A stretch of DNA of 64,000 nt from Candidatus Eiseniibacteriota bacterium (GCA_035496715.1 DATJEK010000095.1:264-64263), one strand, 5' to 3'. Shown: positions 1-64,000, counted from the first letter of the stretch. Made by a program: numbers and translations. The notes: a model not told the origin generated them from the letters alone.

Positions 1-120
1 ATTGAAATGCAGCGACAGCGCCATGAAGAACGAGAGGTTGATGAAGAGCACGTCGATCAGCGCGATCATCTGGACGACCGGCAGCGGACGGACGTAATCG
101 CTCTGCTTGAAGCTGATCAT
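1..120 (-). CDS. ExbD/TolR-family biopolymer transport protein. N-terminal 40 codons only; the gene runs off the window start
   Basis: The reverse complement of 1-120 translates to MISFKQSDYVRPLPVVQMIALIDVLFINLSFFMALSLHFN. This matches the ExbD/TolR N-terminal TM-helix pattern (P..IDV.LVLL.IFM). The ATG (complement of 118-120) overlaps the upstream gene's stop in an ATGA arrangement, consistent with translational coupling. Confidence 0.6.
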   Translation of the reverse strand, partial: MISFKQSDYVRPLPVVQMIALIDVLFINLSFFMALSLHFN

Positions 121-927: not shown

Positions 928-3900
928 TCAGGCGGCCTGCGCGGTCGCCGAGGCGGTGAGATAGAATTCGCGCAGCTTCCTCATATAGTCGATCGGGAGG
1001 ATCGGGTGGAAGATGAGGACGCCGTCGCGGAACGAGAGCCCGCGGGCGATCACGTCCTCCCATTTGCCCCCGGCGGCGAGGAGCCGGACGACCAGCTTGT
1101 CGAGCGTCAGCGTGAAATTCCCGCCCAGGTAAAGGAGGCCCAGGCCGCCGTCCCTCGCGGAGTCGCGGCGCAGGATGGGGCGCTCTTCGCTGTCCACGAA
1201 GAAGACGTGCTCCGGCGTATAGAGCCCGCCCAGCTTGGCGAAGGCGGTCGAAAGCGTCTCCCCCGCCTCGACGAAAACGACGTTGTCGCGGAATCGCTCC
1301 ATGAAATCCGCGTATCCCTGATCGCTCAGCCGGTCCATCAGCGTGCGGTCGAGCGAATCGAAATCCGCCCGCGTCATCGCGACGTAATCGCGGATCGCCC
1401 GTTTTCCGTCGGGACGCTTCAACTTTAAGTCTCTGTCTTTCAATGACTTAAGGAACAAAGGATCTTTCAGCACCGTCTCGAGCGACCAGACGGCCGCATA
1501 CGGGGCGCGGACGTCCAGCGTCACGTCGCCCAGACTGTCGCCGAAGCTCGGATGGAAGAGCCGGAATTTGAGCACCTCCCAGGCCTCCTGAGGATCGGCG
1601 AACGCGGCAAAATCGTCGACGTCCCGCGGCGCCATGCGCGGCAGGAGCCCGATGATCTGCCGGTAGACCGCTTCCTGGTCGGCCGCCGTGAGATCGGAGA
1701 ATTTCGTGTCGCCGTCGAGCAGCAGACGCAGCGAGCGGCGCGCCTCGAGGTCCGCGGCGTTGAGCGCGCGGAGGAAAGCGATCTTCGCCTGCCGGTTCAG
1801 GTCCTGGGCGTCGACGAAGAGCGTGAAAGCGCCCGTCTTCGCCGCCTCGGCTTCGAGCGCCGCCAGACGCGCCTCGGGCTCGAGACCGTCCGCGACGACG
1901 ACCACGCGGACGTCCGCCCGCGGCCCCATCGCCTCGAGAACATCCCGGCGGGCCTCTTCGGAACCGACGCCGACGACGACGGGAGTTTCAACCGGCGGCG
2001 CGCCGGCGCGCTCGCGACCTTGAAGGTCGCGCAGAGCCAGGCGCGCGCCGGGCGGGAGCTGAAGGCGGACAAAGGCCCCGCTCCCGTCCTTGGCCTGTTC
2101 GGCGAGGAAGAACGCCTTGACGCGGTCGAAGTAGTCGCGCCGCTCGGCGTCGAGTGTTTCGCCGAAATCGTAATAGACGGACGCCGGATCCGCGTACATC
2201 GCGAATCGGTCCGCGAACGCCTCTTCCTCCGGCCGGTCCCCGCGCTCGAGGCCCCCCTTCAACTCGTTCTTGAGCGCGATGATCGACTCGCCCCGGTCCT
2301 GGAAGCGCGTGAGCCACTCCTCGATGAGCGCCTGCGCGGCCGAACGGGAGGCCGGGTCCGCGTCCAGCTGGCCCTTGGCCTCCAGCACGATGAAGAGGGC
2401 CTCGCCGATCTCGTGGAGGACGCCCATCGCCATCGTGCGCCGGAGCGTCTGTTCGTCGGCGGGCGGCAGCGGCCGGGCGGCGAGGCGTCGCGCCAGGGCC
2501 TCGAGCTCGGCGATGCGGTCGTCGGTAAGGTTCGGGAAGCGGCTGCGGTCCCTGCGGACGTGCCGCATCAAATGCTCGGGGTACATGTCGCTCTGCATGG
2601 CTTCCGTCATCTCGGTCCCCGAGAAATCCGGCACGAGGATCTCGCTGCGCATCGCCCGCCGGCGGCCGTCGGACTCGTCGCGCGCGCCCTGGATATTGCG
2701 GACGATGTACTGGAATCCCTGCGCGCCGAGGTTCACCCGGGTGCGGACGAAGGCGACGCGCTCGAGCATGAATCCGAACCCGCCCGTCGTGAGCGTCGCC
2801 GCGACGGCCTCCAGGTCCGCGTCGGAGAGAATACGGCGGTACGACGGCAGCGGCCCGGCGAGCGAGGCCAGCTGTCCGGTCGGCTGCCCGCTCCCGGCGA
2901 GCCCCTGGATCAGCGTGTCGCCGAAAAGCTCGACCGAGGACTTGAACGCCCAGCGGCCCTCGCGGACCTGCGTCATCGGCACGGACGCCGGGGCGGGCGC
3001 CTTGGGCGCGAACGCTTTCTTCACGGCGCGCGCGACGGTCTGCACGACGAATTTATTGGAGGCGTTGCGCTTGATGTCGCCCTTCGTGAGATGCGGCATC
3101 CGCGCCTCCTTCTTGATCTCCGCGAGCTTCACGGTTCCCAGCGCGGCGACGGCTTCGAGGAGCTCCCGGCCCTTCTTGGGCGTGAAATTCTTGAGCACGT
3201 CGTCGGCCACCTCGGTGATCGACGCGAGCCTCGCGCCGTAGGCGGCGAGCCTCACGGTCCACGCGCTCAGGCGCGTGAACTGCGCGTCGACGAGCGAGAG
3301 CTCGGGATCGAGGCCGTTTTTCACGGCGATCCCGCGCGCCCGGTCGAGCGCGTTGATGGCCTGGGCGTAGCGCGAAGCGGCCTCGGCGAGTTTTTCCTCC
3401 GCGATGAGCGCTTCCATGCGGTCGACGATCTCGCGCCCGCGCGCGTAAGCGTCGGCGAATTTCGCCTGCTCGACCGACTTGGGGCCCGTGAGGCGCTCCA
3501 CCTCTTTCCTCACCGCCGGCAGGGCGAGCTCGCGGTCGAGCGAGCGCACGGGGATCCCCGCGCGGCGGGCGAGCTCCTCGTTGCCGGTCAGGGTCTTGCC
3601 GTTCAGGGAGCCGGCGAAGACCGCGTCGCGGCGGAGCGCGTTGAAGATGCGCGCGGCGGCGAGGCTGATCAGATACCGGTCGAGAAGCGCTCGGAAACCC
3701 GGGTCCACGCGGCGGTAACGCTGGATCCCGGTCGAGTCGATGCCGGCGGCGGTCGCGATGCCGTTCACGCCCTTCATCAGCACGGGCTTCGACTCCGGCG
3801 CCTGCCGCGAAGCGATCCACGCGCGCTTGGCGGCATTCAAGATGCGGGCCTGCGGTTCGGAAATTTCAAAAGATTCGATCGGAAACGGCTTGAGCTTCCT

Positions 3901-6900
3901 GAGGCGCGCGAGTTCCTTCTCGTCGAACATGAGCGGCCCGTAAACGGCCGAGAATTCGGCGCGCACGGCCGCGTCGCCGCGCAGTCGGTCGAGCACCGTC
4001 TCGTCCGCGACCCCGGCGGCGGCGGCGACCGTCTGGCGCGTGAAAACGGGGTATTCCGCCTCGGGCGACGAGACGGCGGCGGCCGCGCGCAGGCGCGTCA
4101 CGCGGGTCGAATTCAAAATCGCGGCCGTCCACTCGTCCATCAGGGCGCCCCGCACGGCGAGCCTCACGGAAGCGTTTTCGGCCACCCGGCGCGCGAGCAG
4201 GTGACGATTGACGGAAACCCCGTCGGCCTTCAGCTCGGCGACGATGGTTTCGTAAACCACTTCCCGGACGACGGCGCCGGAGCGGTTGGCGCGGCGCAGG
4301 CCGTCGGCCGCCCGGAGGATGGCCGCGTCGAGCTCGCCGAGCCGCGGGGCGCGGGCGCGCGCCAGGATCCCCGCGCGGTCGGCCTCGGCGATCCGCTCGA
4401 GCCGGGCGACGCGTTCGCGGACCGGCTCGCTGTCGTCGAAATGGACTCGGAACGTCTGCTTCGAGATCTCGAGGCGGCGGTTCAGGCGGTACCCGCGGAC
4501 CGGATAGAACCGCTTCGACGGATCGACTTCGAATTCGCCGATGAGGGCGTCGAGCCTCTGCAGGATCTTCGCGCGGACCGCGGGATTGCCGGCGAGCCGG
4601 GCGCCCTGGCCGAACGCGGGGAGCTCGAAGAGCCGGTTCAGGAGTCCGTCGCTGAGATGCCGGTCTCCGGAGGCGTGGATGTCCGAGGCGGCGACGGCCA
4701 GGAAAACGGTCTTCATCTCCTCGGCGAACGCCGCGCGCTCCGTCTCGGCGAGGATGCCGCGCCGCACGAGCCCGCGCGACCAGTCCCCGATCGGGTCGCG
4801 TCCCGTGAGAAAGCGCGGCTTCTCCTGCTTCCAGCCGTCGGTCAGAAGCCAGGGATCGGTGTGTCCGAGCACGACTTTCGAGACCGCCTCCTGCACGAGC
4901 TGTCCCTCCCCCGCCGCGTGGAGCAGCGCCGGCGCGATCTCCGAGCCGTAAAGCTGGTGGGAGCCTCCTCCCAGATCCGTCGCGTAGCCGATGTCGTGAA
5001 ACGCGTTCGCGTACACGAGGATGCGCCGGCCGCGCTCGCTCAGCGCGCCGATGCGGACGATCAGCGCCTCGAGCCTGCGCTGGTCGCGGACCGCGCCGAA
5101 CTCGTCGAGCGCGAGGAAACCGCTCAAGTCGCCGGCCAGGAGCGCGTCCATCGCGCGCGCGTCGATTTGCAGGTGCTCGGAGCGCGTGCGCCGGCGGCCG
5201 ACCTGCCGCCCCTCGGCGTCGCGCATCGGCCACGATCCCTGGGCGGGGTTCTTCGTGTCGAACGCCTCGAGCGGGAACCCCTGCTCGGCCAGCGACAGAA
5301 GATAGGTCTCGGCGGGAGCCGGGGAGGCGAAAGCCTCGCCGGACGACGGCGTCCCCTGCGGGGCCGGCGGAAAGAAGGGCCGCGCCAGCTCCTCCATCTC
5401 CTCCCGCCCGGGCGTCAGGAAGGTGCGCCGGCTCGGGAGGTAGTCGGAGAGCTTGGAGGTGAAGCCGAGGCGCCGGCCGATCGCGCGGGCGATCGCCAGC
5501 GCGTAGTAACGGATCTTGTCGAGCGCGCGCTCGAAGCGGCTTTCGGTGTGCACCTTGAGATTCGCGGGGAGGAACGAATTGTCGCCGAAGACGAGCAGTT
5601 TCCAGCGCCGTTCGGCGGGCTCCCACGCGAGCACGGTCACGCTCGCGTTCCGGGGGTTGAGCAGCGCCTCGTACATCGGTTTGTATTTCCGGGACGGGAT
5701 CTGGAGCGCCGTCATGACCGCCAGGAGAATCGTCATCCCGTGGGAGCCCACGAGCACGTTCTCGTCGTTCGAACGCGTGACCGCGTCGAGCCATGCCGCG
5801 AGCCCTTCGCGGAAGCGGCGCCCGGAATAGAGTCCGTTCACCTCGTACGCGTCCGGATCGCGCGTGAAGCGGGCCATCCATCCCGGGAAGAGATCGATGC
5901 CGCTCGACACCGGCACGCCGCCGATCGGCTGGATGAGCACCTCGCGGAATTCCTTCAGCATCTCGGGCGCGCGGCCGGAGAGCCCGGCGTAGGCGCCGAC
6001 GGTCTCGTAGGCGCGTTCGAGATCGCTAGAGACGATGCGGTCGAACCGGGGGCCCGCGGCCTTCAGGAACTCCGCCAGCGCGCGCGCCTGCCGGCGGCCG
6101 CGCATCGTCAGCGGCGAGTACGCGTCGTGCGACTGCACGAAGCGGAAAAGGTTCGAGACCGACTCGCCGTGGCGCGCGAGCACGACGACCTTCGCGTCCG
6201 GATGTTCGGCGCGCCAGGCGTCGAACCCTCCGAAAAACCCGGCGGCCGTTTCGAAAACCGGCCGGAGGCGCTGCTTCTCCGACTCGTCGAGCGCGGAGAC
6301 CGCCAGGCGGGCGCCCGCGTTCTCGCCGAGCAGGCGTTCGCGGAGCAGGCCCTCGAGGAACCGCCCGCTCCCGTCCAGGTTGAGGGCCGCGCGCGTCCAG
6401 CGGTATTCGTCGCGGTCCTCGAAATAGAAAGGCTCGAGGCCGTTGCGGATCAGCAGGTAATTCATCATGAACCACGCCAGGCGGTGATGGCCTTCGGCCG
6501 CGTGGGAGCTCTCAAAAATCTTGTCCTGGCGGGACGCGCGCACCCGGGTGAAACCGGGCAGCTCGGCGAGCAGCTGGTGGACGCTGATCACGGCGTACAG
6601 GGCGGCGGCGGCGCGGACCGTCTCGGCAGGCGACGCGAAGCGACGGTTGGCGGCCCTCAGCACGTCCGGCCACACCTCGGCGAGCGACGCCAGACGCCGG
6701 GCGCGTTCGGCGGGCGTGTAGGCGGCGTTGCGCCGGTCCCCGCGGAACAATTCGTAGAGCGTCACGACCTTCTCCCAGGTCAGCGGCGCGACCGGGTCGA
6801 CCTCCCGGTTGAAATAACGGATCGCGTTCCTGAAATCCGCGTCATCGATCAGCCGGCCCGCTTTCGCCGGGTCCAGAGCCAGCCGCGCCCCCAGGGCTTC

Positions 6901-41892: not shown

Positions 41893-42045
41893 TTAGACTA
41901 TGAATATATAAATATATTTACTAAGAGACGCGAATAAAAAATACGCGCCAAAATAAACTCTCGAGGAGTCCATTTTTTACCTTATTTTGCCGTTTTCAGG
42001 GTTTGAAAATAGAGACCGATTTTACCCATGTCTATGCATGGCATA

Positions 42046-42074
42046 AGTTTACATGACCCCCTAGCGGGATGCAA
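42046..42074 (-). promoter_or_regulatory. Candidate sigma70-like promoter for giant gene 1: -35 TTGCAT (42069-42074), 17-nt spacer, -10 TAAACT (42046-42051)
   Basis: Read on the reverse complement. Each hexamer matches consensus at 4 of 6 positions. Several other AT-rich hexamers in the island are equally possible. Confidence 0.2.
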
Positions 42075-42115
42075 AAAAATGTGAACTCGTAACACTAATA
42101 TATGCATAGACTTAC

Positions 42116-42206
42116 AAAAAAAGGAGGCTACGCCCCGGACGATGTGGGATCGGTGTTCTGGAACCCGGCGCCGTCAGGCGGCGGGACAGATTCGCGAGGC
42201 GTAGCC
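42116..42206 (-). terminator. Candidate intrinsic terminator for giant gene 2: 9-bp stem (GGCUACGCC / GGCGUAGCC) enclosing a structured ~63-nt loop, followed by UCCUUUUUUU
   Basis: Stem arms are at 42198-42206 and 42126-42134, with the U-tract (plus-strand A7) at 42116-42122. This lies 12 nt after the TAA stop at 42218-42220. The large loop contains an internal 5-bp hairpin (CGCCG-ccuga-CGGCG). Confidence 0.35.
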
Positions 42207-42217
42207 CAGACTTTTCG

Positions 42218-45200: not shown

Positions 45201-45600
45201 GCGTGTTCCAAACGGTAGTCGACGAGGCGCAGATTGAGGATGAGCTGGGCGAACGACGCGTACTGGAGCGCCCGGCGGTATTCGCGTTGGAGCTCCTCCG
45301 GCACGTGGGGCCCGGCCAGCTCGAGCTGCTGGATGACGCCCGCGATCTCCCTCGTTTCGGAGGTGCGCATGATGAGCTGCTGGGTCAGGTCGCGGCGGAA
45401 ATTCACGGTCCGGTTGATCGTGTCGATGTCCGCGATGACCCGGCGCGCGCTTCCCGAGGCGGCCTCGACCTCGCTCAGCTGGCGCGCGAAATCGCGCGTG
45501 AAATTGAGGAGGACCGGCAGGATCTGCGTCACGGTCGCCCCGCCCTCGTTGAGGATCGCCAGTCTCGCGCCCGCCACCGCGTCCCTGGCCCGGACGAGAT
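42218..45600 (-). other. C-terminal ~1,100 aa alpha-helical region with HEAT/ARM-like repeats (AIEAVRDIGAAVQ..., IRLAAIDAIAGIQS...)
   Basis: Repetitive A/L/I-rich helical hairpin pattern in the translation. No catalytic motif recognised. Confidence 0.3.
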
Positions 45601-57600: not shown

Positions 57601-60600
57601 TCAGCGACCGCCAGCCGATGAGCGACCGGGCCGTGTCGCTCCAGAGCTCGCCGTTCAGCGCGAAATAGCTGCGCAGGCTCACCGCCAGGTGATAGAACGA
57701 AATGACCGTCACCGGATAGGTCAGGGCGAGGAGGATGACGGTGAACAGGAATCCCAGCGTGAACGCGCCCACGACCGTCACGCCGCTGAAGAGGAAGAAG
57801 ACGAGGAGGCCGCCGACGTAGACGGTGCTGGCGCCCATGATCACGCCGCCCCAGAAGAACTTCTCGTTCCAGGGCATGCTGGACCAGAGGATGGGCAGAA
57901 GCAGCGGCGCCACCAGGATCACGAGGATGCCGACCGCCAGGAGCTTCGGCGCCATCAGGATGATCGCGGCGCCCGCGGCGACCGTGAGACCCGCGGTCAC
58001 CAGGAATCCGATCTTCTGTCCCGTGCCCATGCCCCAGAATTTCCCGAGGGAAAAGAGCGGCTTGAGGAGCCTTCCGCCGTACAGCGCCCGAAGGCCGATC
58101 CCGGCGGGCCGGAACGCGAAGATCAGGAGCCCGAGGCCCGCGGCGACCACGAGCGTCGGCACGACGAGACCGCCGACGAACACCCCGATCGCGACGCCCG
58201 CGGCGGCGGTGACCAGGCCGAGAAGGAGCGGGATGCGGCGCACGCTCGCCGGCCGTTTCGTGGAGAGATCCGCCGCCGTGGCCTCCGGGTGATCGATGCC
58301 GGCCAGGCGGAGCGTCGTGCGCTTGTAAGCGGCGGCGATGTTGTTCTTTTCGTTGTCGTCGGCGCCGGTGGCGATCGCGCGCAGCTGCGCGGGCGTGCGG
58401 ACGCCGCCGCCGACGGTGGCGGCGATCTGCTGCTCGACGGTGAGCGCGGGGCGGCCGTCCCGGCGGGCCTTTTCGGCCTCGATCTGGACGGATTCGAAAA
58501 GGTCCCAGATGTCCAGGTCGATGAAAAGGTCCAGGAGCTGGATGCGGTCCAGGTCGCGGCGGATCACGTCGAGGATGTCTTCGACGGAGCGGCCGGCCGT
58601 GAGCGCGGCGTCGACCTGCGCGACGAGCACGTCGCGGCGGTTGCGGCCCAGGAGCGCGCCGCGCACGCCGTCGAGGACCTGCGCGCGCGTGAGCGCGCCG
58701 TTGCGGAGGATGCGGTCGATGTTGGTGAGGACCATCTCTTCCGCGGTGCTCCACTGGTCGCGGCCCGTCACCAGCTTGTAGCGGTCGAATTCCCGTTTCA
58801 CGATCGGCCCGAACGCGCCGTTCAGGTCGTCGACGGTCTGCAGCACTTCGGCGGGCGTGCGGCCGGCGGCGATCGCGGCGTTGGCCTGGCGGACGACGTA
58901 CATCGAAAACGGCCACATCGCGGCGAACTGGCCGATCGAATGGTTGCCGGTCTGCGACGGCGGGCGCTGGACGAGCTTCAGGAGGATGAATTCATTCAGG
59001 CTGACCGGCTCCACGGCGCGGTTGATCGGGTTCGGGTTGTAGACGATGTCCCCCGTGGCGGCCTGGCTCAGGAGCGTCGGGTTCTTCATGAGGTACGGCA
59101 GGAGCTCCGCCTGGGCCGACTGGAGGATATCCGCCTGCACCGCGGGGCTCACCTGCCCGGCGTAGCTTGCCGTCATCACGGCCGTCATCCTCGGCTCGAT
59201 GAAGCGGCGCGACACGAGAGCCTCCACGAACGTCGTCAGGCTCGTGTAACCGGCGGCCAGCGCCGTGATCTGGGCCATCGTCAGGATGCCGCTGTCGAGG
59301 AGGTAGCGGAGCGTGTTCGCCTCGGGCGTCACCGGCAGCGCGTCGACCCAGCGCTTCTTCGCGGCGTCGGACATGCCGGGGCGCAGGATGGCGGCGGTCA
59401 GGACCTTGTCCTGGGCCTTCTCGATGAGGATCTTCGTGACCCATCTCCACAGGAGATCCCCTTGGCGGCGGCCGCCGTCCGAAGCGGCCGTGACCGCGCT
59501 CTGCAGCTCGGCGTCCGAGATGAGCCGCGGCCCGCCGGTGGCGTCGATCAGGTCATAGAGGATGAGCGCCTGCGGATATTTGTTTTTCGCCCGCGCCATC
59601 CGCACGTCCACGGCCGCGTTGGCCGCCGTGAGGCGGGGCGCCGTCGGGTAGAGATGGGGATCCCTCTCCAGGTCGTCGAACGGATAGGTCGGAATCCTCA
59701 CTCCCACCGCCTGGAGCGGCCGTTTGAGATGCAGCGTGCTGCTCAGGAATCCGACGAGCTTCCCTCTCCAGGAGCGGCTGTACTGGTCGGCGTAGACGAG
59801 GCGGTCGACTTCGTCGTTCGAGAAGCCCAGCACGTTGCCGTAATGGTTCCGGATCAGGGCTTCGCGCTCCGCTTCGGGGATGTGGGGCCCCAGGACGAGA
59901 CCGGTGCCGAGCTCCTTGGCCATCACGAGCCTCTGGCCGGGATCGGCCGTCGCCAGGCGGGCGCCGAAAATGTTGCGGTTGGCGTCGGCCGCGTCGTTCG
60001 CCTCCGGGCTCTCGGCCTCCGGAGAGCGGCGCAGACGCCTGTATAAAGGAAACAGCGTCATGAGAAGCAGCGCCGCCCCGCCCATCCACCAGGCGTTGTT
60101 CATGGTCCAGATGAGGTAGTCCCGGCTGACGCGCTGGGGGCGGTCGTTCTCGCGCTCGACCGGGAGGGCGGTCCCCTCTTTTTCGATCTGGTTGAAAAGA
60201 TTTTCCACCTTGTCGCGGTCGATCGCGCCGACGCGTCCGGCGACCCATCCGGGAACGCCGTTGTAAAACTTGTCGTAAAGCATCTGCGTGAGCGTCAGGT
60301 CGTCCGGGTTCTGGGGGTTCATCACATGGATCGCGCTGATGCCGGCCTGGCCCTTCGACGTGATGCTCGCGACCAGCTCGCCGTTGCGGATGAGGTACGC
60401 CGAGGCGCCCTGGCCGCGAACCTCGGGGCTGAGGATGTGCTCGGAGATCAGGATGTAGATGTCGCCTTTCTTGCCGTACTCGCCCTTGTGGTCGACCCAG
60501 GTGCGCGTCGAGAATTCGCTGTAGATCGTCGCCGTCGGCGACCGGCGGTCGTAGTCGGTGCCCGTGAAATTGTAGACGTTGAGGAAGATGCCGTCGCGCG

Positions 60601-63600
60601 AGGTCTGCACGTACGGATACGGGGTGTTCGTCGCGTACTGCTTGCCCTCGGCGTTGTAGCGCACGCCGTACACTTCGTACACCGTGTGCGTCTGGTAGTT
60701 GTACACGACGATGCCGGGGTTGCGCTGCTCCGCCGCGCGGTCCGAGGGGATGACTTCGTACACGTACTCGCCCTTCGCCTGCTGGTGCTCCCGGAAGCGC
60801 GTGTTGCGGATGACCCGGTTGGGATCGCGGCTGACGTCGACGACGATTTCGCCCGGCGAGACCCCGAACGGCGCGTGGATGTCCTTGGCCTGCCACTTGA
60901 TGAAGCGCACGAAGCCCGAGCCCTCGACCGCCAGCGTCCGAACGAGCGGATCGTCGATGTCGACGTAGCGCGCGTCCATCGCGAACTCCGTCCCGTTGGC
61001 CTTCAAATACCGCGTGATGCGCGAAAGCCGCACGTCGTCGCGCACGGGCACGCCGTTGTCGCGGAGCTCCTGGACCACCGAGGCCGGCAGCCGCATCTGC
61101 GTCATTTTGTTCCCCTTAAACTGCTTCTCGAGCGCGGGAGATAGCGCGCGCTCCCCGACGAGCTGCGTCATCGCGACGGGGATCGGGTCGGCCTGGATGC
61201 GGAACACGAGTCCCTTCGAGAGCTCATAGCCGTTGGTGGCGTTCTCCTGGTTCCACCGCGTGTTGATCATGACGTTCGACTCGCGGTCCGAGGAGAAGAA
61301 GAGCACGATGCGCGCGAACGGGTCTTCCTTCACGCGGACGGTGTAGCTGGTGCCGCCGTTTTCCATGCGCACGGCGGTGACGACGAGCGTCAGCGGCCCG
61401 TTGACGGCCATGCTGCGGCGAAGCTCGGTGAGGCTCTCGTGCAGATAGGTCTTGGCCTCGGCCTTCTGGTTCGCGGGGATCTGGTTCGCCAGGTCGCGCA
61501 CGATCGGAGGAAGCGCCCCGTTTCCGTCGACGATCCAGTCGGCGTCGGCCGGGACCTGGTAGGGTGCCTCGTATTTGTAGGTCGTGCTGATCGCCCGCTC
61601 GCCGAGGGAGTAGACGCCGTTGGACTTCTCGGCGACGTAGGTGACGCGGATCGGCAGCCCTTTGAGCGTCATCGCCGTCGGGTTGTCCGAGATGAACTCC
61701 GCCATGTAGCGTCCGTCGGGCAGCTGGGAGATCGTCGCGCGTTCCTTGCCCTGGGAGTCGACGGCGCGGGCGCGGACGAACGCTCCGTTGGGGGCGATCT
61801 CCTCGAGGATCCGCCAGCCGGTGGGGCTGATGGGGAAAAATTCCTTGGGGAAGCTGCTGAACGTATTTTTCGTCTGGACCGCGTAGCCGACGGCCGGAGC
61901 GGCTTTGCCGGCCTCGAGGGGCGCGCCGTTGCGGTCGAGAGGCCGGTACTGGTTGTCGAAGAAGAAGGTCTGGTTCACCGGCAGGTCGTCCTCGTAGCCG
62001 CGCGCGTCGCGCACGCGCTTCTCGAGGATGGCCGCGGTCTGGTTGCCCTGGATGACGACGATGCCGTGGACGGGGACGGCGTTCACCGTCTGGGGGCGGA
62101 GATAAAAGGAAGCGCTCTCGCCGCCGTTGGGATCCGTGGCGTACGCGCGGTCGAAACGGCCGAAGCGGTCGACGCGCACGTAAACGCGGCCGCCGTTCAG
62201 GGTCTTTCCGGTATCGTGGACGCCGCCGACGACGTTGCCGAGGACGATCTCTCCCTTGGCCTTGTCGTCCAGGTAGGTCCGCACTTCGAACATGCCGGGG
62301 CCGATCCGGACGATCGCCTCGCCCGTGAGCCCGCCGTCGGTCGGATAGAACGTGATCTGCTCTTCGCCGGTGACCGTGTCGTTGGCCACCATGCGTTTCT
62401 GGTTGTTGAGCTCTCCCGCGGCGGGGCCGAAACGGACGTCGTACACCGTGCTGCCGTTGACGGTCTGCGGCGCGCCCTTGGCCATGCGGATCGTGCGCTC
62501 GGAGACCATCCCGCCCTCGCGGATGGCGTCGCCTTCCTTCGTGTAGGCCGTCGTGACGCTGCGCGAAGGGATCGCGGTGTTCGGCAGGTAGGCCTGGTGC
62601 ACGGTCCGCGTCCAGTTCTCCACGACGCGGTCCGCGGCGCCCGGCACGGGGATCACGCTCGTGCTGATCAGCGTGTTCCGCTCGAGCGGGCGGGTCTCGC
62701 GGTAGGCGCTGCCCCCGACGGTGACCGAGATGATGTCGAACGTGTCGATGTAGACCCGCCCGCTGCGCAGATCGGTCACTTTCACGCGGCTGCGGCCGAG
62801 ATTGTCCACGGGCAGCGGCTCGTAGATGCGGTCGCGCTTCCATTCGCCGCCGTCCCAGAACCAGACCACGGCGACGCCCGTCTGCACGCCGAGCGGATCG
62901 CGCTGGAAATAAACCTCTTCGTTGGCGCTCACCGTGCGCCGGATGAACTGGTTGAGCTCCCTCTCCGCTCCGCGGAAGCCGCCGAACACCAGGACCGTGT
63001 CGCCGCCCTCCGTGTAGCGGTTGCCCGATTTGATCTGGTCGGCGAGCTCCAGGATCCGGGCGTCGCGCACGCGGCGGGCGTGGTTGAACGGATCGGCGGG
63101 CTGAGTGGGATTGGTCTTCTGGTCGGCGCGAAGCTTCTCGTATTCCGTGCGGGCCTCTTTCAGCCTCTCCGCGAGCTTCGTCTGGGCCGGGCCGACGACC
63201 GCGGGGTCGACGCTCAAATCGGCCACGCCGGCCCGGATGCGGATCACGGCCCCGGTCAGCTGGCTGGGCCCGGCGAGCGCGGCGGTTTTGACGAGCGCCT
63301 GGTTGCGGGCGACCTCGGTGCGGGCCTCGCCGGCGCCGCCCAGGAATTCGACGACGTAGAGCGTCCCCTTCGGCCCGAACGTCCCGGCCGCGTCGACGTA
63401 CCGGAAGGTGTTGTCCGCGAACTCCTTTTCGCGGGACACGATCTCGGCCTCGACGGCGCCGCGGGGTTCTCCGGCGCGCATCTTCTGCACCCAGGTGTCG
63501 CGCAGGCGGTCGAGCTCGACCGCTTTCTGGCCGATCACGGCCTCCCACTGCGCGATCTGCGGCGGGTTCTTGGCCACGACGGGGTCGCGAACGAAAATCC

Positions 63601-64000
63601 GGGACATCACCGGATTCGCGGGAACCGAGACGACGAGCCCTCCGCGGTCCAGCGCGAGCGCGTGCTCCTTGGCGTTTTTCACGTTCTGGTCGTAAAGGGC
63701 GCGCGCCTTGGCCAGCTCCACCTCGGCGCTCGCCGGCGTGGGCACGATCACGACCTGCACGGTCTTGTTGGGATTGGGCCCGATGAGCTTCAGCTCGTCC
63801 GCGCCCGCTCCGTCGCGGACGTACACGTTGCGGCGTTTCAGCGTCACGTCATCGGGGCTCTCGGTGTCCGCGATCCGGCGCTGGAGGATCTCGATCTGGA
63901 TGCCGAGCTGGTACACCTCCACCAGGGCCTCGTTCCTCGCCTTTCCGGCCGCGGCCGGCACGGCGGCGACGGCCGCTTTGTAATCGGCGCGCTTGGCGAC
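42218..64000 (-). CDS. Giant multidomain membrane protein 2, 5'-truncated at the window edge. At least 7,247 aa are in the window and the frame is still open at 64000
   Basis: The ORF track gives 42218..63961 (its apparent GTG start is a window-edge artefact). Stop is TAA at 42218-42220. Recognisable domains run throughout (below). Confidence 0.85.
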   Translation of the reverse strand, partial: VAKRADYKAAVAAVPAAAGKARNEALVEVYQLGIQIEILQRRIADTESPDDVTLKRRNVYVRDGAGADELKLIGPNPNKTVQVVIVPTPASAEVELAKARALYDQNVKNAKEHALALDRGGLVVSVPANPVMSRIFVRDPVVAKNPPQIAQWEAVIGQKAVELDRLRDTWVQKMRAGEPRGAVEAEIVSREKEFADNTFRYVDAAGTFGPKGTLYVVEFLGGAGEARTEVARNQALVKTAALAGPSQLTGAVIRIRAGVADLSVDPAVVGPAQTKLAERLKEARTEYEKLRADQKTNPTQPADPFNHARRVRDARILELADQIKSGNRYTEGGDTVLVFGGFRGAERELNQFIRRTVSANEEVYFQRDPLGVQTGVAVVWFWDGGEWKRDRIYEPLPVDNLGRSRVKVTDLRSGRVYIDTFDIISVTVGGSAYRETRPLERNTLISTSVIPVPGAADRVVENWTRTVHQAYLPNTAIPSRSVTTAYTKEGDAIREGGMVSERTIRMAKGAPQTVNGSTVYDVRFGPAAGELNNQKRMVANDTVTGEEQITFYPTDGGLTGEAIVRIGPGMFEVRTYLDDKAKGEIVLGNVVGGVHDTGKTLNGGRVYVRVDRFGRFDRAYATDPNGGESASFYLRPQTVNAVPVHGIVVIQGNQTAAILEKRVRDARGYEDDLPVNQTFFFDNQYRPLDRNGAPLEAGKAAPAVGYAVQTKNTFSSFPKEFFPISPTGWRILEEIAPNGAFVRARAVDSQGKERATISQLPDGRYMAEFISDNPTAMTLKGLPIRVTYVAEKSNGVYSLGERAISTTYKYEAPYQVPADADWIVDGNGALPPIVRDLANQIPANQKAEAKTYLHESLTELRRSMAVNGPLTLVVTAVRMENGGTSYTVRVKEDPFARIVLFFSSDRESNVMINTRWNQENATNGYELSKGLVFRIQADPIPVAMTQLVGERALSPALEKQFKGNKMTQMRLPASVVQELRDNGVPVRDDVRLSRITRYLKANGTEFAMDARYVDIDDPLVRTLAVEGSGFVRFIKWQAKDIHAPFGVSPGEIVVDVSRDPNRVIRNTRFREHQQAKGEYVYEVIPSDRAAEQRNPGIVVYNYQTHTVYEVYGVRYNAEGKQYATNTPYPYVQTSRDGIFLNVYNFTGTDYDRRSPTATIYSEFSTRTWVDHKGEYGKKGDIYILISEHILSPEVRGQGASAYLIRNGELVASITSKGQAGISAIHVMNPQNPDDLTLTQMLYDKFYNGVPGWVAGRVGAIDRDKVENLFNQIEKEGTALPVERENDRPQRVSRDYLIWTMNNAWWMGGAALLLMTLFPLYRRLRRSPEAESPEANDAADANRNIFGARLATADPGQRLVMAKELGTGLVLGPHIPEAEREALIRNHYGNVLGFSNDEVDRLVYADQYSRSWRGKLVGFLSSTLHLKRPLQAVGVRIPTYPFDDLERDPHLYPTAPRLTAANAAVDVRMARAKNKYPQALILYDLIDATGGPRLISDAELQSAVTAASDGGRRQGDLLWRWVTKILIEKAQDKVLTAAILRPGMSDAAKKRWVDALPVTPEANTLRYLLDSGILTMAQITALAAGYTSLTTFVEALVSRRFIEPRMTAVMTASYAGQVSPAVQADILQSAQAELLPYLMKNPTLLSQAATGDIVYNPNPINRAVEPVSLNEFILLKLVQRPPSQTGNHSIGQFAAMWPFSMYVVRQANAAIAAGRTPAEVLQTVDDLNGAFGPIVKREFDRYKLVTGRDQWSTAEEMVLTNIDRILRNGALTRAQVLDGVRGALLGRNRRDVLVAQVDAALTAGRSVEDILDVIRRDLDRIQLLDLFIDLDIWDLFESVQIEAEKARRDGRPALTVEQQIAATVGGGVRTPAQLRAIATGADDNEKNNIAAAYKRTTLRLAGIDHPEATAADLSTKRPASVRRIPLLLGLVTAAAGVAIGVFVGGLVVPTLVVAAGLGLLIFAFRPAGIGLRALYGGRLLKPLFSLGKFWGMGTGQKIGFLVTAGLTVAAGAAIILMAPKLLAVGILVILVAPLLLPILWSSMPWNEKFFWGGVIMGASTVYVGGLLVFFLFSGVTVVGAFTLGFLFTVILLALTYPVTVISFYHLAVSLRSYFALNGELWSDTARSLIGWRSLNPFRGLLGAMFSSRVPTSELFSHFMKLAVPLYLLGALGVIFAVIPVGFTLFTVLFVIGGLAVYLVFRSLPRGDLPEFWEGKFGEWLSELRDVEENHRSPIPNGESVAEYLERLVGILERRYLLSQDEAQQWRDALRGSPDGRLVRPRSAKALDLLQMTFFTLSQKKVVPDVWALLQASSTHVQAAGEMFGHTLENCIVLGTFNEIPAVPSDPPGADRRTSLAGYVARTNPAEWENLVGIDSALAHNPSANVRRATVLLRNVNERTNIVELLTTAGLTVSEREVVYRAILGWMNEMRPNNDAVMDSMAQDYVEYHLLAAFETGNLAYQAAVREIAASNTSLAEAHRTLSALPRASLSPGQLVFVDNYARYQAKIDLKLRPIFQDALLWGNFRGSAGGVNLTDVRPLQVAGPPAADTGLIKILTDYANRLPADDPMRRSLLGGPAGLMGPAVTGLINELNEFNPQFVPVTDAARRAKFASMAAWSEAFLAWKEANNERLVRMVELLGRGPDATLVNAADVRERLNTLTQSALTYRKAGQNNVRVAFHNFAADNFLNNYPGKHQGIALNLAEFYGTTVDYDAHVMNEHGQHVFRSTWASMNSRQRQPNLAAINPMMKIWASTSDSFPATKIYAIAQMVWTTDVQRALRGKLLDYGKYMGIPQTIGPFSPPGEDSEGLLMLQRSANRYGVFYTGTQIDWFTYRWGRPSLLAESLVTTEMRYSFNVTRFMMDRGSFAVFYNPNVPASVKLTHIFLWFHYFIAPFALTLLILLPVLSPFSAFAFLKPFFFFVGSSFILMEAINTNNFTRHWRESGSFWQAFYLAGKDLITALPFYVFLIPFFFRGVMLASKEMFSFLRTVKEAFLRSWDDEQRFDELMIFRGIPFFGARGIPLNSLVGFAGVLSWMIAFVMMTPFGPAILLPYLLTSFAFLSGMYSFSAFRDRDGLMSGFRYSPLFVLGKSFFVIRRTFGYVFSTQSGRDRQQRAARARATAGGLQTPELGAVTPANVETLVAARSQALTRADHAGNALGLGPFARPDFRPQTTRQINEWSASSEIRHQIDTGVRVAAARLASAPEAPRSSIVSRAIEEVVARETRAPSRGLVEGARLAPWVDYFTPLLKRSTLVTRQFEQGMDLELIKRIREKSLPRPEPRGVFAPFVRLYRAITRFVTQTTLTGGLGALMFDLVNAWKKNGIDAISINPIYDTIKGQPFIRPEDLPEEVRSGRKSLGDYTREALGKPDPELSFTIRLNIGDDFRAKAKGKSREIVDREIRVQVYRTETPFGTPIYYIDAHFVAEGPQGQVLRPVFDEVYPDADGGNDYSYLWRDVHMGVYALASQTLVKRLQEKKAIKDEVVFVDNEVFVSMPTPLFPDSVRLHINHTVFRPGLYQPDAASFEMLGYPEYQRPYVVQGGKINVVDAVAMDANVLTGVGIYEHLPVLARDILAAHVNKLKGWNQDGMRSTNGALVEHWRAAERRQILSYYKKKLGLPVEAWEDEATDAALAAAFKDPVNAALKDEFTRRSEFVSASYVAQFLVWMRDEQKNGRWLDSTMAGVADAEAVLAEFRKAVAEASASGDDARWADIEARFGQVRDRLLAQPIVSNVRRQVSYKGPDKWIELLEHLKAHPSELEAFRREAGRVVIGGRIFGSEALAMFGRIKGLVEELGLQDQITTIENYNVDEAPVIFQAMAGTVMLSDEFLEASATSMMKAALNFAKYIGVWGGAMPEIFTIHEADPAAPDGLGPVINVFTHNDGKPVTHDQLRQKLNSGEWVMPNGELVEYNDSEKSRERGGGRRPSSVAGRGLLQALKGLKRDYSAPETRRATQYAVWASSYKVDMERSQARAHARLLEEAIAQRNGEKALFASLNPTTVPARQKQTEDLQKVFFNENGFHWANPADPQGRALLESGQERPGFLGFVDSIRWLRTKGYNAYASVEYHANNTTASPDGDIFHFIRQNLLKDGGESLKPFAEEIERLAAEARGADAERKVQLNFMALELVDKLAAQLAWQLLLRYKEGDGDTRESLEEYMHDIRMRENLIRYLDKNTTPLQTTSSNLKAYAAVIDGERMIVSVNWREFIYKSVSATKARATLYPEGVRAVLGPEAFEGTGKPQIYAAYNVISGRTYPPHTLQKLARKGLPLGVTHFQVLRMVPQAADGEFQRVSEIDRDDATRFVEAAINEEFIDGRELPTALLGRRIREIRNSANPAQGFRNFLRQLVRLKPEEAAERFGEAVPAVMALITALYPDYLSVIEDWNPEVFARLNALKPVIGGADFHVHQSQPQTAIVLSKTLAGGRHVTIPFHFANHPVHIDGKAWLAVTDLESLGVRDDFNSRYKVDDFYPDSTHFQVLEIRPAHYAPLSESRRTYDREHPGSHLIKGDPYQQLPPGWHIGVPVSVPAGARLSQTVQTAAWADDADDLWAVVPREADRAKRIPEVTLDLHTRQIVFKTQIRILKSAVKDVEIFRTVSPFYLHYGIEGRDWAFRQAKVDDITDNGTEYVFSVSAGFVPYEAGTQTYQGTFVTTRHIDPSHQGPQWFGGHQIRWQAGEKENGALAATRTTGAQVPAVFDAIERDLDVSNHELLRGVTQADVKEIAQALRDFVDRPTPVVPANAPIFMQKARAYQLLSDIYDQDGREGVLGIPRGWELPIPYYPQEKSLTGANQQKLSEFYWQKVMASLLQYMEAKLAPYAERLYRPIEMEGQGTSKVYEFSTSFRLDLLHILASDLVSRAGSATHPQKVLNFQANLLTGGKRAPAGQKPQPSKARPAYELKISVRESESGGGRVSYKGTYKKFTEQPDGSVREETTAEYTHVYDAESVAELGPDEDPQAKYFLDALRATGFIPDGARNPQNYLKDKQLDMTVELVTNIPPRTGLGGSVMLASFFINGLLRVSGRSEGLTKEELALLGSFLEVRLKSLGGWQDAITWPGLHLLSTIDGDIGTLADQIEKDATLKEREAEILSNIQKHTVLVVTERHEAKDVLGQLIRGYLRRDENYMKNLREGESDVQAAESWLQGLKDGHGGDIRELFRLAERQAAQFNDVVEGFITPEMKTITERLKAKDLIVASKPAGAGHGGVLMLYLKNPSAESRQAVEAEIAQFRSELMARPGKTPGANDYQILDFTPFEQKGVKVGLHESSYYQQVKGARLAAETPSAAAPVVVPSRPSLLERAVRFFGRTFGGFLRPAVLAITLLSFSVLPPSINPFLNQAVAQNVLEDKEGVIRTLKTPKDAVTFIETQSFNRKGRFEYGLPATFHVPAVSGIKFENKDHELIIRRGSGLYDTALAVLILTEQGEQKSAQRILDIYASGRYGDFQLGAYPSRDNKGAFEPFDADVHYIFNFTDATGRWTKEWSFWNVHTGPNAWLAMAASRYIEKYGGVDAPENRAYVALVNKLGKAMLRLQTTEGGVRYGPRSQYNPAAGKNDDTAYYYLNSENNVSAYAAFRTLFNLTKDKAYSDAADKILRFLSEQEVWVQTEGGEWKSQKGMLNPADGTLYMGVFWNQARKRLEIENQFATDSGGTWTLLSLGVEKIDELFGKGASFRMWKSIREKAGRTADYRPAGLKLPLAGLDYTNQIKGRVIDETSALIPPEWNAAIARRGKDAERETDTVLTLMIDRYLNHPTESVTADDIEGLRKDLASVRTRLYTRPNPYAAGPGLGGWRKAEGTGFGWIPPLDERVTAMASMYVFFERDPLAYWRGGDARLDINKPAPKAKPEEKKEPAEKKEPEAKKAEEKPPVVVEETKAEVEKALPVGAAKTSAVVYVIAAVGILGGGTAVYVLLKRHRDAKLEAAETARRSEELNRKVKTPLTSAQEAFKEAVALLPQKKEKDRSVVDLSVEALKGLDSAKRDQIRPLLTRTLLQTAAVITGIASLDQETQGEVAEDLRKARALNDKATRIRQALAQGARLAEERRETALNNPNGLHMGPAGRLVKIAAELRKGGAELSIENVGTGERVGADNTFTVLMLAMEDKTPVAAVVTGDLDAAKLGNAADVVKAYLEDTDAQEDDAKLAPYLVRARDAVAGARLAILNEGGATVTQILPVLLNFTRDFARQLSEVEAASGSARRVIADIDTINRTVNFRRDLTQQLIMRTSETREIAGVIQQLELAGPHVPEELQREYRRALQYASFAQLILNLRLVDYRLEHARLELGDQGPRHREYLRRYLERFQQRANDEIGSFATLLAVYSDSLQEGVPFALPATYRRNLGATIRELRRATEMNRVTSNIGIAPDWLREDLGAIRTSLGIAYRSLRHLPVQPDIATPVSDATAAVRSRAEAAIAQPRGALRFSTFDEFAELREALRYDAELWQEVPVIVTRVEGILNTLEARQTAWNQGNRTRDNLPVEANYLVEFAATGLVRDRFTPDGFVAFRTTAVNPQTAAVRPETQAAFAAAVQAAAAGFPSLRRGHVRTFANHLAEAYAAVQNLVPAQPGVGPDYLIDGLSIRDRGAQVATRRDMLRRVVTRVTTTHPGEAPQAVAALLGLAQTPQERPALRIFAIEAVRDIGAAVQLDPSATQPLVTILNGATDLGVPSNQTADDIRLAAIDAIAGIQSDRVLYFARLSNGLENNQRPLVMRRAAERLTSLAADAVPAESDLWTDVVRGFIGVIAFEGQRVHADTRDAVAELLSTVLAALPRQSVTLPVATTRRARRVIRERADGARLATEVRGGGPSFDVTSSTLLQEPIVLALVSNPAELGEKSRRIAEALKDTRIAARLETDFKFVAVTGAEAFAASASAPVNLLVDESAVNAPDVLEARLADALRLREEKAAEARAVAGEITGRLLETIAFVFENEKGTLDELKLASVAELRRQLAGIALPAAQAVRLEITADGELRALSGAAVISAARPVLIAGQADLGDFEKRFDAALEAPTDAETRVQLIRAGAAANDYLVADNGLELAQKLENLSAAFAAAKQRILERTERALRLDPADLPLENLAGTTVVATHESMLSWDYVRQLNEVNSRIEEMNRRTGQQLAVVNQLVVTNPAFDPALASEETLKRKYIEGDEAAGLPAHPEAAAFPGRLVFRPNLSDLSQLAKADGIYRNPWIMVAREGTDLKLGETGEQERKPLLLQLNAGAKSANGMPYVAVRLRLSDGKTTGVPGLENLGNGIFRWLPPLQKLVDLIKQAAFAIKAVGSAA
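45635..45930 (-). other. HPr-like phosphocarrier domain 2 (NNPNGLHMGPAGRLVKIAAEL...), His6031
   Basis: His codon complement is at 45869-45871. Aligns with HPr (SGIHARPATVLVQTA...GxxITIxAxGxDEx.A). The Arg17-equivalent is replaced by Gly, and the domain is preceded by QGARLAEE. Confidence 0.55.
46290..46525 (-). other. Lys/Pro/Glu-rich low-complexity linker (KPAPKAKPEEKKEPAEKKEPEAKKAEEKPP) plus a single TM helix (SAVVYVIAAVGILGGGTAVYVLL)
   Basis: Plus-strand 46441-46500 is a run of ttc/ttt/ctt/cgg-type codons complementary to the K/E/P codons. A hydrophobic 23-mer follows. Confidence 0.55.
46595..47975 (-). other. Single TM helix (LRPAVLAITLLSFSVL) followed by an (alpha/alpha)6-barrel glycoside hydrolase/epimerase-like domain (WSFWNVHTGPNAWLAMAA)
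   Basis: The GPNAWLAMA-type motif at ~47540-47600 is typical of six-hairpin glycosidases. Fold assignment is tentative. Confidence 0.35.
48170..49325 (-). other. GHMP-family sugar kinase domain (PPRTGLGGSVMLASFF ... KPAGAGHGGVLMLYL)
   Basis: GHMP motif II PxGSGLGSSAA-like, with Met4989 at 48995-48997. The C-terminal glycine-rich motif III lies about 230 aa downstream. Confidence 0.6.
52200..54160 (-). other. GT35 alpha-glucan (glycogen/maltodextrin) phosphorylase catalytic core
   Basis: The N-terminal TGGLGALMFDLVNAWKKNGIDAISINPIY matches GGLGxLAGDxLKSAxDLGxPxVGVGL. The PLP-lysine block EASATSMMKAALNF matches EASGTSGMKAAxNG. The Lys is at 52499-52501 (aa 3821) and the GGLG Met3296 at 54074-54076. 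Their separation of about 530 aa equals the GGLG-to-PLP-Lys distance in E. coli MalP. Confidence 0.7.
54680..55430 (-). other. Transmembrane cluster 2 of giant protein 2 (about 6-7 helices, ORF aa ~2850-3090)
   Basis: IFLWFHYFIAPFALTLLILLPVL ... LITALPFYVFLIPFFF ... LVGFAGVLSWMIAFVMMTPFGPAILLPYLL. Trp2925 is at 55187-55189. Confidence 0.6.
57380..58370 (-). other. Transmembrane cluster 1 of giant protein 2 (about 8-10 helices, ORF aa ~1870-2190)
   Basis: Long run of hydrophobic helices (LLLGLVTAAAGVAIGVFVGGLVV ... ILWSSMPWNEKFFWGGVIMG ... VLFVIGGLAVYLVF). Met2029 is at 57875-57877. Confidence 0.6.

Follow-up and report, generated by a model that had tools for sequence, protein, structure and literature searches.

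GARL[AS], a candidate polyprotein delimiter in two neighbouring giant bacterial proteins

Giant proteins and polyproteins described so far

Giant bacterial proteins with SecA domains and transmembrane (TM) regions have been described together with the question of whether they are cleaved (West-Roberts et al., 2023, 10.1101/2023.11.21.568195). The authors proposed C39 and S8 peptidases for this task, and a lack of information on the cleavage points prevented them from segmenting the proteins. A 2024 survey of huge proteins likewise reported the protease motifs as unknown and treated the existence of these proteins as a single chain or as pieces as an open question (PMC11573180), and a 2026 preprint on Omnitrophota mentions neither cleavage nor motifs. 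Here we analyse two giant open reading frames (ORFs), p1 and p2, in a 64,000-nucleotide stretch of DNA (hereafter the window) from a Candidatus Eiseniibacteriota bacterium (GCA_035496715.1, DATJEK010000095.1:264-64263), and a pentapeptide, GARL followed by Ala or Ser (GARL[AS]), which recurs between their modules. Neither recurrent delimiters nor a TIKI-like module turned up as described for such giants in a full-text literature search, the coverage of which is incomplete.

With TM clusters and, in p1, a divergent SecA module closer in sequence to those of other giant proteins than to housekeeping SecA, p1 and p2 belong, as judged from their sequences, to the SecA-domain giant-protein family, which is found mainly in Omnitrophota. 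They share with the giants of West-Roberts et al. (2023) a length above 5-10 thousand amino acids (aa), clusters of TM helices, many unrelated enzyme modules, and a divergent SecA_DEAD plus preprotein-binding domain lacking the canonical C-terminal part of SecA. In contrast to that work, neither a C39 nor an S8 peptidase is present here, cysteine is essentially missing, and a delimiter code and an N-terminal module with a predicted TIKI-type fold are identified.

The nearest bacterial precedent is offered by the MARTX toxins, giant secreted proteins in which a cysteine protease domain (CPD) cuts small-Leu-small sequences in unstructured linkers between effectors (PMC2900308). The likeness lies in a giant multi-effector protein, in a Leu followed by a small residue within disorder-prone linkers, and in the RRSP effector, which has the TIKI fold predicted for the N-terminal module here. 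The present proteins, however, have no RTX or glycine-rich repeats (no HemolysinCabind or other repeat family was matched in Pfam scans of 20,901 residues) and no Pfam match in p1 or p2 to the inositol-hexakisphosphate-activated cysteine protease domain (C80), and a MARTX-type CPD is ruled out, as no Cys is available for catalysis. They also differ in a strict pentapeptide with Arg at P2, in having 39 sites instead of 3-5, in a SecA-like motor and an N-terminal Sec signal, and in that cleavage is here something that we infer.

Viral polyproteins form the third point of reference, with one translation product, a short recurrent boundary site, a cis-encoded protease that co-varies with its sites, and spacers between tandem sites. 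Among their proteases, picornavirus 3C cuts between Gln and Gly, coronavirus Mpro after Leu-Gln and before Ser, Ala or Gly, and pestivirus NS3 after Leu and before Ser, Ala or Asn. A recurrent boundary site and its co-variation with lineage were both found here; as a candidate protease, an N-terminal module of predicted TIKI fold with conserved His, Glu and His is present, and some relatives do not fit. Unlike the viral case, the gene is part of a cellular chromosome and has ordinary neighbours, such as MotA/ExbB in the window or, beside one relative, pst, queC and panE; its modules are of metabolic or housekeeping type, and the protease class would be a different one. The comparison suggests polyprotein processing in an unexpected place, in proteins for which prior reports left the matter of cutting open.

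The GARL[AS] tag and its counterparts in relatives

Exact GARL occurs 32 times in p1 (41892..928, on the minus strand, as are all p1 and p2 features below; 13,654 aa) and seven times in p2 (63961..42218, upstream of p1; 7,247 aa), with 1.40 and 0.50 occurrences expected from the exact composition (G 7.3%, A 12.9%, R 9.9% and L 11.0% in p1). An earlier sequence-only reading had put the counts at about 30 and 7, the expectations at 1-2 and below 1, and had named a comparison with shuffled sequence as a possible refutation; the figures agree with ours, and among 2000 residue shuffles the maxima were 6 (p1) and 4 (p2), far below the observed counts. GARL is the commonest 4-mer of p1 and of p1 and p2 pooled, and within p2 it ranks second to the overlapping ARLA, which occurs eight times. 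The next residue is Ala or Ser at 37 of the 39 sites (29 and 8, respectively; Gly and Pro are the exceptions), nearly always, as had been said, and GARLA is thus seen 29 times where 0.24 are expected. Among one-residue variants followed by Ala or Ser, replacements of the Ala or of the Leu were not found at all and replacement of the Arg only once, and of the nine xARL[AS] that lack the Gly most fall within folded regions, such as LARLA in the deaminase. The claim that a small residue or Pro precedes the motif needs a small correction: position -1 is Ala at only 14 sites, a weak preference, and otherwise varied, and it is the 20 upstream residues as a whole that are rich in Pro (9.2% vs 5.4%).

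The 39 sites draw on all six codons for Arg, on four for Leu and on three each for Gly and Ala; they comprise 28 distinct 12-mers, the DNA around them is not conserved, and selection therefore acts on the peptide. The same had been argued from three codon examples, which were right to within 1-2 nt (GGC GCG CGC CTG GCT at 2035..2049, GGC GCG AGG CTC GCG at 3223..3237 and GGA GCG AGG CTC GCC at 35341..35355), and a DNA repeat or cassette as the origin of the motif is ruled out by this codon diversity. Gly, Ala, Arg and Leu are the commonest residues of GC-rich genes and an off-frame of the same DNA has several GARL, which would be the case for a chance or compositional artefact; that explanation is refuted, and its probability negligible, given 39 sites against 1.9 expected, the shuffle maxima, the restriction to Ala or Ser after the Leu, the boundary positions reported below, and the same tag in a relative (P0009) from a genome of only 47% GC.

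Domains were assigned by Pfam scans of all residues of p1 and p2 together with PDB sequence matches, and segments were defined by cutting after each GARL Leu, which yields 33 in p1, most of them 200-600 aa long, and eight in p2. No Pfam or PDB footprint is cut by a site (P = 0.0075 under random placement), and of 20 domain edges seven are no more than 40 aa away from one, against 1.6 expected (P = 0.00025). Compared with random positions, the stretches of 15 residues to either side of the sites, leaving the motif itself aside, have a higher disorder propensity (TOP-IDP z = +5.5), fewer hydrophobic residues (z = -3.7) and more Pro (z = +5.0). In the AlphaFold model of the N-terminal module, confidence collapses exactly at the first GARL; a single-sequence model of p1 11400-12450, with five sites, was uninformative (mean pLDDT 37.7). 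The earlier proposal that the pentapeptide marks module boundaries is borne out by these tests, and so are the cases on which it was built. The p1 HPr domain (32008..32241, aa 3218-3295; Pfam), in a 101-aa segment (3207-3307), lies between GARLA 3203 (32272..32286) and GARLS 3304 (31969..31983), and its p2 counterpart (45674..45904, aa 6020-6096), in a 119-aa segment (6016-6134), between GARLA 6012 (45914..45928) and GARLA 6131 (45557..45571). The TM module of p1 (18571..19329, aa 7522-7774), with 3-4 TM helices, has GARLA 7518 (19327..19341) at its start and, at its end, GARLS 7771 (18568..18582) in tandem with GARLA 7787 (18520..18534), 16 aa further on. The TadA/CDA-type deaminase (7108..7611, aa 11428-11595; Pfam and PDB, with a PCxxC) begins six residues past the pentapeptide GARLS 11420 (7621..7635), and the histidine phosphatase of the PGAM type (5593..6186, aa 11903-12100; Pfam 6e-28) 39 residues past GARLA 11860 (6301..6315).

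All-against-all BLASTP among the 41 segments gave no match at 1e-3. GARL as part of a repeated domain is ruled out, the segments being mutually unrelated, and the tag has therefore been kept independently in 39 contexts.

Relatives were obtained in two ways: the SecA-bearing segment served as the query of an exhaustive HMMER search, and an alignment of the SecA module was used to scan genomes. This module of p1 (13273..15222, aa 8891-9540; Pfam and PDB) is a SecA-like motor of the NBD1-PPXD-NBD2 type, with Pfam scores of 1.7e-19 for SecA_DEAD, 5.8e-10 for PP_bind and 5.2e-12 for the P-loop; PDB SecA aligns to it over SecA residues ~72-580 only, the C-terminal scaffold and wing part remaining unmatched. 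The nine best matches are proteins of 1.8-6.6 thousand aa with 37-45% identity over about 650 residues; remoter giant proteins share 26-30% and canonical SecA about 26-32%, and the giants all rank above housekeeping SecA. Named relatives come from metagenome-assembled genomes (MAGs) of Candidatus Omnitrophota and from Ca. Omnitrophus fodinae, and also from MAGs labelled Planctomycetia and Elusimicrobia. For p1 aa 7467-8500 no relative was found in an index of 5.8 billion proteins, GTDB genomes, IMG/VR or JGI metagenomes, from which the window's own genome is therefore absent, and a search with aa 3150-4349 gave none either.

The family has in common a signal peptide, a conserved N-terminal module (N-module), the SecA-like module, in front of which a Fis-type helix-turn-helix (HTH) is often found, and a C-terminal module; P0005, with 1,795 aa the smallest member, has the three core modules and nothing else. 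Cysteine makes up 0.02-0.1% of the relatives (P0001-P0040), against 0.3-2% in ordinary SecA. The last residue is Ala in every complete member (P0001-P0051), usually as -[AQSK]-A (...AKAA, ...AASA, ...AQAA), and this conserved terminus recalls tags read by C-terminal-specific proteases or unfoldases.

Recurrent tags are found throughout much of the family, each lineage having its own. GARL itself returns in P0009, from the MAG of 47% GC, 12 times (expected 0.22) besides two AARL, and L002/P0151, the N-module of which is 47% identical to that of p1, has [AGSV][AGSV]RLA six times in 5.6 kb. The tag is [AGS]S[LM]G in P0001, P0002, P0003 and P0005 (10, 14, 11 and 3 copies; expected 1.5, 3.0, 2.4 and 0.9), RSELR in P0014, P0018 and P0022 (8, 10 and 5; expected 0.01-0.02), RSE[LV]R in P0020 (4), SR[LM][STV] in P0040 (6) and [SA]R[LM][ST] in P0031 (5), x-E-[LIMV]-R in P0039 and L010 (4 in P0039), [RK][RK]SP[SAG]G in P0051 (13; expected 0.03) and AW[VI]G in P0004 (4; expected 0.05). 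No recurrent tag was detected in P0006-8, P0010, L001, L006 or L011. Conservation of the motif in homologous giants had been named earlier as a point to check; P0009 has it, and other lineages carry other tags.

These different tags occupy equivalent boundaries. The N-module ends in AGARLALQ in p1, VGGRLALE in P0151, AASLGA in P0001 and RSELRI in P0014; about 10 residues past the SecA homology block, P0001, P0002, P0003 and P0005 read ...AQAASLGQ where P0009 reads ...SQQAGARLAAW; and in every tagged member the tag of its own lineage stands directly before the C-terminal module. A single P0004 block of 1,066 residues matches the p1 segment 4342-5374 at 35% identity, and p1 1545-1854 matches a P0009 block that starts at P0009's own GARL. 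Tags never interrupt a Pfam domain in P0014, P0001, P0005 or P0009, and the histidine phosphatase of P0009 is tightly flanked by them.

Taken together, the sequences indicate a lineage-specific delimiter at equivalent module boundaries that is under selection at the protein level, and since the tag is common to all sites and changes together by lineage, a co-evolving, trans-acting reader is called for. A passive linker or hinge, or a relic of module joining without any reader, would agree with the linker-like sequence around the sites, and linkers may have compositional preferences of their own. Such a role has no need of an invariant pentapeptide, the flanks are unrelated and come from no DNA repeat or cassette, and the use of one tag per lineage with another at equivalent boundaries elsewhere would require concerted change, so that we regard it as very unlikely. 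Of the options raised at the outset, namely processing site, maturase tag or inter-module linker, a site read by a co-evolving factor is accordingly favoured and the passive linker disfavoured.

A candidate enzyme and other possible readers

A protease is the likeliest reader because of the strictness of the motif, the Leu or Met shared among tags, the tandem sites, the inclusion of modules that elsewhere function as proteins in their own right, and the gene ends seen in L001 and L002. The tags of lineages with a TIKI-like N-module share a Leu or Met (occasionally Val or Ile) followed by a small residue or Arg, which fits a common P1 pocket, and the cuts proposed for them (slash marking the bond) are GARL/A, SR[LM]/[ST], ASL/G and RSEL/R. 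Tandem sites leave four short spacers in p1 (34, 20, 16 and 9 aa) and occur in relatives as well, with spacers of 9-34 aa. Modules that are ordinarily free proteins include HPr, the deaminase and, in P0014 (L003:10001-22102), a complete sigma-70 (regions 2, 3 and 4) between two RSELR tags, in a protein that also has HTH_8 and the SecA-like module. In L002, the closest relative, a single in-frame stop (3788-3790) separates a p1-like N-terminal ORF from its same-frame continuation, and in L001 the N-module is a separate 522-aa ORF (10001-11569) with a 4-nt overlap to a 7,909-aa ORF, preceded by a 9,732-aa gene; in both, a gene end lies no more than about 100 residues from the point where the N-module stops. 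These ORF breaks may reflect gene fission, read-through or assembly error.

In the mechanism that we propose, GARL[AS] would lie in flexible inter-module linkers and be recognised by one sequence-specific reader, most likely with a cut after the Leu (before Ala or Ser). p1 would then give about 29 protein-sized products and four short spacer peptides, and p2 eight products; the specificity of the reader would co-evolve with its sites, leaving each lineage with its own tag at equivalent boundaries; and the enzyme would be the family-conserved module after the signal peptide (p1 aa 39-631), with its predicted TIKI/TraB/RRSP fold. That p1 and p2 are polyproteins, with GARL[AS] as a delimiter cut by a dedicated endopeptidase for which the N-module is the best candidate, is on balance probable from the sequences. 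Such processing is the best supported of the readings, and a smaller share of probability is to be added to it for cleavage by a different enzyme. A GARLA-containing peptide, AAPAGARLALQRK, could serve as a cleavage reporter. In the SLG lineage there is also a conserved double-site cassette, for example ASLGxPGQAAGGGSVKPALADGLG (P0001 1807-1830 and 2634-2657; P0003 1016-1039, 1999-2022 and 3691-3714), with a conserved spacer of roughly 20 residues that might be released as a peptide.

The comparative data demand a co-evolving reader, of which a protease would be one kind among others. A dedicated partner could instead read the tag without cutting it, as a signal for docking or registration with, for example, the SecA-like motor of the protein itself or another translocation or chaperone component that takes the modules one by one, or as a site of post-translational modification. 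The NBD1-PPXD-NBD2 unit is found in nearly every sampled member, its canonical homologue binds preprotein segments, the SecA-like module has been proposed to export the giant protein itself (West-Roberts et al., 2023), and scarcity of Cys fits unfolded transport. SecA, however, recognises hydrophobic signal peptides and not charged pentapeptides, near-absolute invariance over 4-5 residues is typical of protease sites, and p2 is tagged though it has no SecA module. Tandem sites with short spacers suggest separate products, HPr and sigma-70 modules work free, which suggests release, and the L001 and L002 genes end close to the N-module boundary. We therefore give a tag that is read and left uncut a minor share of the probability.

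The enzyme proposed, the N-module of p1 (40000..41778), is preceded by a Sec-type signal peptide (41779..41844, aa 17-38), MKLRALSAVLIAAFFCQDLASA followed by QG, which was read from the sequence and is a putative assignment; a similar peptide is present in relatives, with the consensus FxxQxxAxA in the N-module alignment. This alignment comprises 15 N-modules of 20-50% identity, in which H92, Q98 and E120 are invariant, with G485, G486, F487 and H488 shared by at least 90% of the members. An AlphaFold model built with it (mean pLDDT 81.7) has a central parallel beta-sheet core with flanking helices, three of the conserved residues sitting at the C-terminal ends of beta-strands, and in this model the module has a protease-type fold of the TIKI/TraB/ChaN/EreA/RRSP group. 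Among the three modules common to most of the family, namely N-module, SecA-like module and C-terminal module, it alone has a protease-type fold, and it is a reasonable candidate for the processing protease and an answer to the earlier call for a search for a co-encoded one. It differs from the TIKI/TraB/PrgY/EreA/ChaN superfamily by a helical insertion of roughly 300 residues, by Asp or Asn in place of the first Glu, and by the lack of a significant sequence-profile match. We know of no member of this superfamily that processes a polyprotein.

Several points weigh against this assignment and against the polyprotein reading as a whole. The TIKI assignment consists of the fold plus a weak Pfam match (Cofac_haem_bdg, 3 of 15 members, best E 1.1e-3), and a profile of the N-module alignment run against PDB sequences returned only noise. 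Of the residues that would make up a 2His/2Glu motif, the one two before H92 is Asp or Asn and not Glu, and the TIKI superfamily also includes esterases and haem binders. P0006-8 retain the TIKI-like residues with no tag detected, L001 likewise gave no tag, and P0051 has a tag and no detected TIKI-like module. The signal peptide would place the N-module outside the cytoplasm, yet GARL occurs both before and after the TM cluster and a large number of modules look cytoplasmic. As the window spans only 64 kb, the protease may come from elsewhere in the genome or from a prey or host cell. Segments of 1,033, 1,324 and 1,886 aa contain several domains, and the tag would therefore mark the boundaries of products and not of each domain. 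The cutting of the sites, the bond cut and the identity of the enzyme, finally, are each what we infer.

Some of these points favour cleavage of the sites by another enzyme, be it a protease encoded elsewhere, the alpha/beta-hydrolase or LspA-like module of p1, or an enzyme of prey or host. P0009, the second GARL lineage, has a Peptidase_M50 site-2-protease module (aa 4672-5171, L007:20333-21832; HExxH, NxxPxxxLDG) as one delimited segment, P0002 and P0039 have TM modules with HExxH, p1 itself contains a hydrolase of the S9/S33-like kind and matches Peptidase_A8 weakly, and both the tag-less relatives with a TIKI module and the problem of topology speak for such an enzyme. An M50 protease in p1 or p2 is ruled out, there being no HExxH in a membrane context; the hydrolase and the A8-like module are not family-wide; no protease gene adjoins P0014 or P0009; a host enzyme fails to explain lineage tags unless hosts differ in step; and the protease-type fold among the widely shared modules is that of the N-module alone. 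Another enzyme at the same sites is consequently an outside candidate, on a par with the uncut tag. The full proposal, in which dozens of unrelated proteins, among them HPr, kinases, methyltransferases, a SecA-like motor and, in relatives, a sigma factor, are made as one product and freed by an N-terminal TIKI-fold endopeptidase using a lineage-specific delimiter code, is more demanding than the polyprotein reading itself and is put forward tentatively.

Modules, gene setting and implications

The remaining sites and modules of p1 follow the N-module in order. Its end coincides with GARLA 628-632 (39997..40011), where pLDDT is below 50, and thereafter come GARLS 1117 (38530..38544), GARLS 1541 (37258..37272), the equivalent of P0009 GARL 2145, and GARLA 1851 (36328..36342), 2180 (35341..35355, one of the codon examples above) and 2702 (33775..33789). 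After the HPr segment, GARLA 3507 (31360..31374) and 3541 (31258..31272) form a tandem with a 34-aa spacer, and GARLA 3877 (30250..30264) opens a segment (3881-4321) with an alpha/beta-hydrolase of the FrsA/S33/S9-like kind (29020..30063, aa 3944-4291; Pfam, PDB). A second tandem, GARLG 4318 (28927..28941) and GARLA 4338 (28867..28881), with a spacer of 20 aa, leads to segment 4342-5374 and its LOG domain, similar to cytokinin riboside 5'-monophosphate phosphoribohydrolase (26575..27330, aa 4855-5106; Pfam, PDB). GARLA 5371 (25768..25782), GARLA 5796 (24493..24507), GARLS 6017 (23830..23844), GARLA 6879 (21244..21258) and GARLA 7121 (20518..20532) precede the TM module.

A hydropathy scan places the TM helices at p1 7527-7683, upstream of the SecA-like module, and gives 10 TM-like helices for p2. 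The TM module has a sub-threshold match to Peptidase_A8, the lipoprotein signal peptidase (18.4 bits vs a cut-off of 25), and the LspA-like motifs GATDMI and ANPADFAILIG. Further on lie a methyltransferase (aa 7976-8088; Pfam), GARLA 8167 (17380..17394), GARLA 8719 (15724..15738), at which the SecA-bearing segment starts, GARLS 10043 (11752..11766), HEAT repeats (aa 10569-10667; Pfam) and GARLA 10922 (9115..9129). The deaminase segment has, at its C terminus, a His/Asp run, HDHDHDHEHDH (6919-6951, aa 11648-11658), which may bind metal; directly downstream of the run come the tandem sites GARLPLEALGARLA, GARLP 11659 (6904..6918) and GARLA 11668 (6877..6891), 9 aa apart. Past the histidine phosphatase follow GARLA 12430 (4591..4605), 12886 (3223..3237) and 13282 (2035..2049), the last of which directly precedes the C-terminal module (931..2037, aa 13286-13654). 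In p2, the sites other than those around HPr are GARLA 1333 (59951..59965), GARLA 3219 (54293..54307), with an AARLA 37 aa upstream, GARLS 4511 (50417..50431), GARLA 5254 (48188..48202) and GARLA 6766 (43652..43666); a GHMP-kinase domain (48371..49057, aa 4969-5197) falls under the Pfam cut-off. The C-termini are ...TAQAA in p1 and ...AVGSAA in p2.

The two minus-strand ORFs, p2 then p1, occupy nearly all of the window (68% GC) and are genuine genes; the start of p1 is likely Met17 (41844). Plus-strand ORFs of 2,407 to 4,725 aa (1552-60046), antisense to them, were rejected as high-GC artefacts. An AT-rich spacer of 325 bp (41893-42217), in a window otherwise of 65-70% GC, separates p2 from p1 and probably holds p1's own promoter region. 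Directly downstream of p1 lies a MotA/TolQ/ExbB proton-channel gene (836..117, minus strand; Pfam 4.5e-28), which points to a diderm bacterium with these genes in a normal chromosomal context; an exact look-up of its protein gave no match. Its Cys content is ordinary, and cysteine is nearly missing from p2 (1 of 7,247 residues) and from p1 (3 of 13,654; the signal peptide holds one and the PCxxC zinc site of the deaminase the other two). No RNA family was found in the window with Rfam.

Where such proteins are cut, and by what, has been named as missing knowledge in surveys (10.1101/2023.11.21.568195; PMC11573180), and the delimiter addresses both. It predicts exact termini that can be sought in existing metaproteomes, it shows how proteins of 10,000-80,000 residues could be divided into pieces of a size that structure prediction can manage, and with a candidate enzyme and three of its residues named the question of cutting is made testable. 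If the reading is true, Omnitrophota and their neighbours would have a cellular counterpart of viral polyprotein expression, and the delimiter code would let the giant proteins of this family be parsed computationally into their true products. If it is confirmed, polyprotein expression, which has until now characterised viruses and a few toxins, would be found at large scale in cellular organisms, and the TIKI protease fold would gain a new role.

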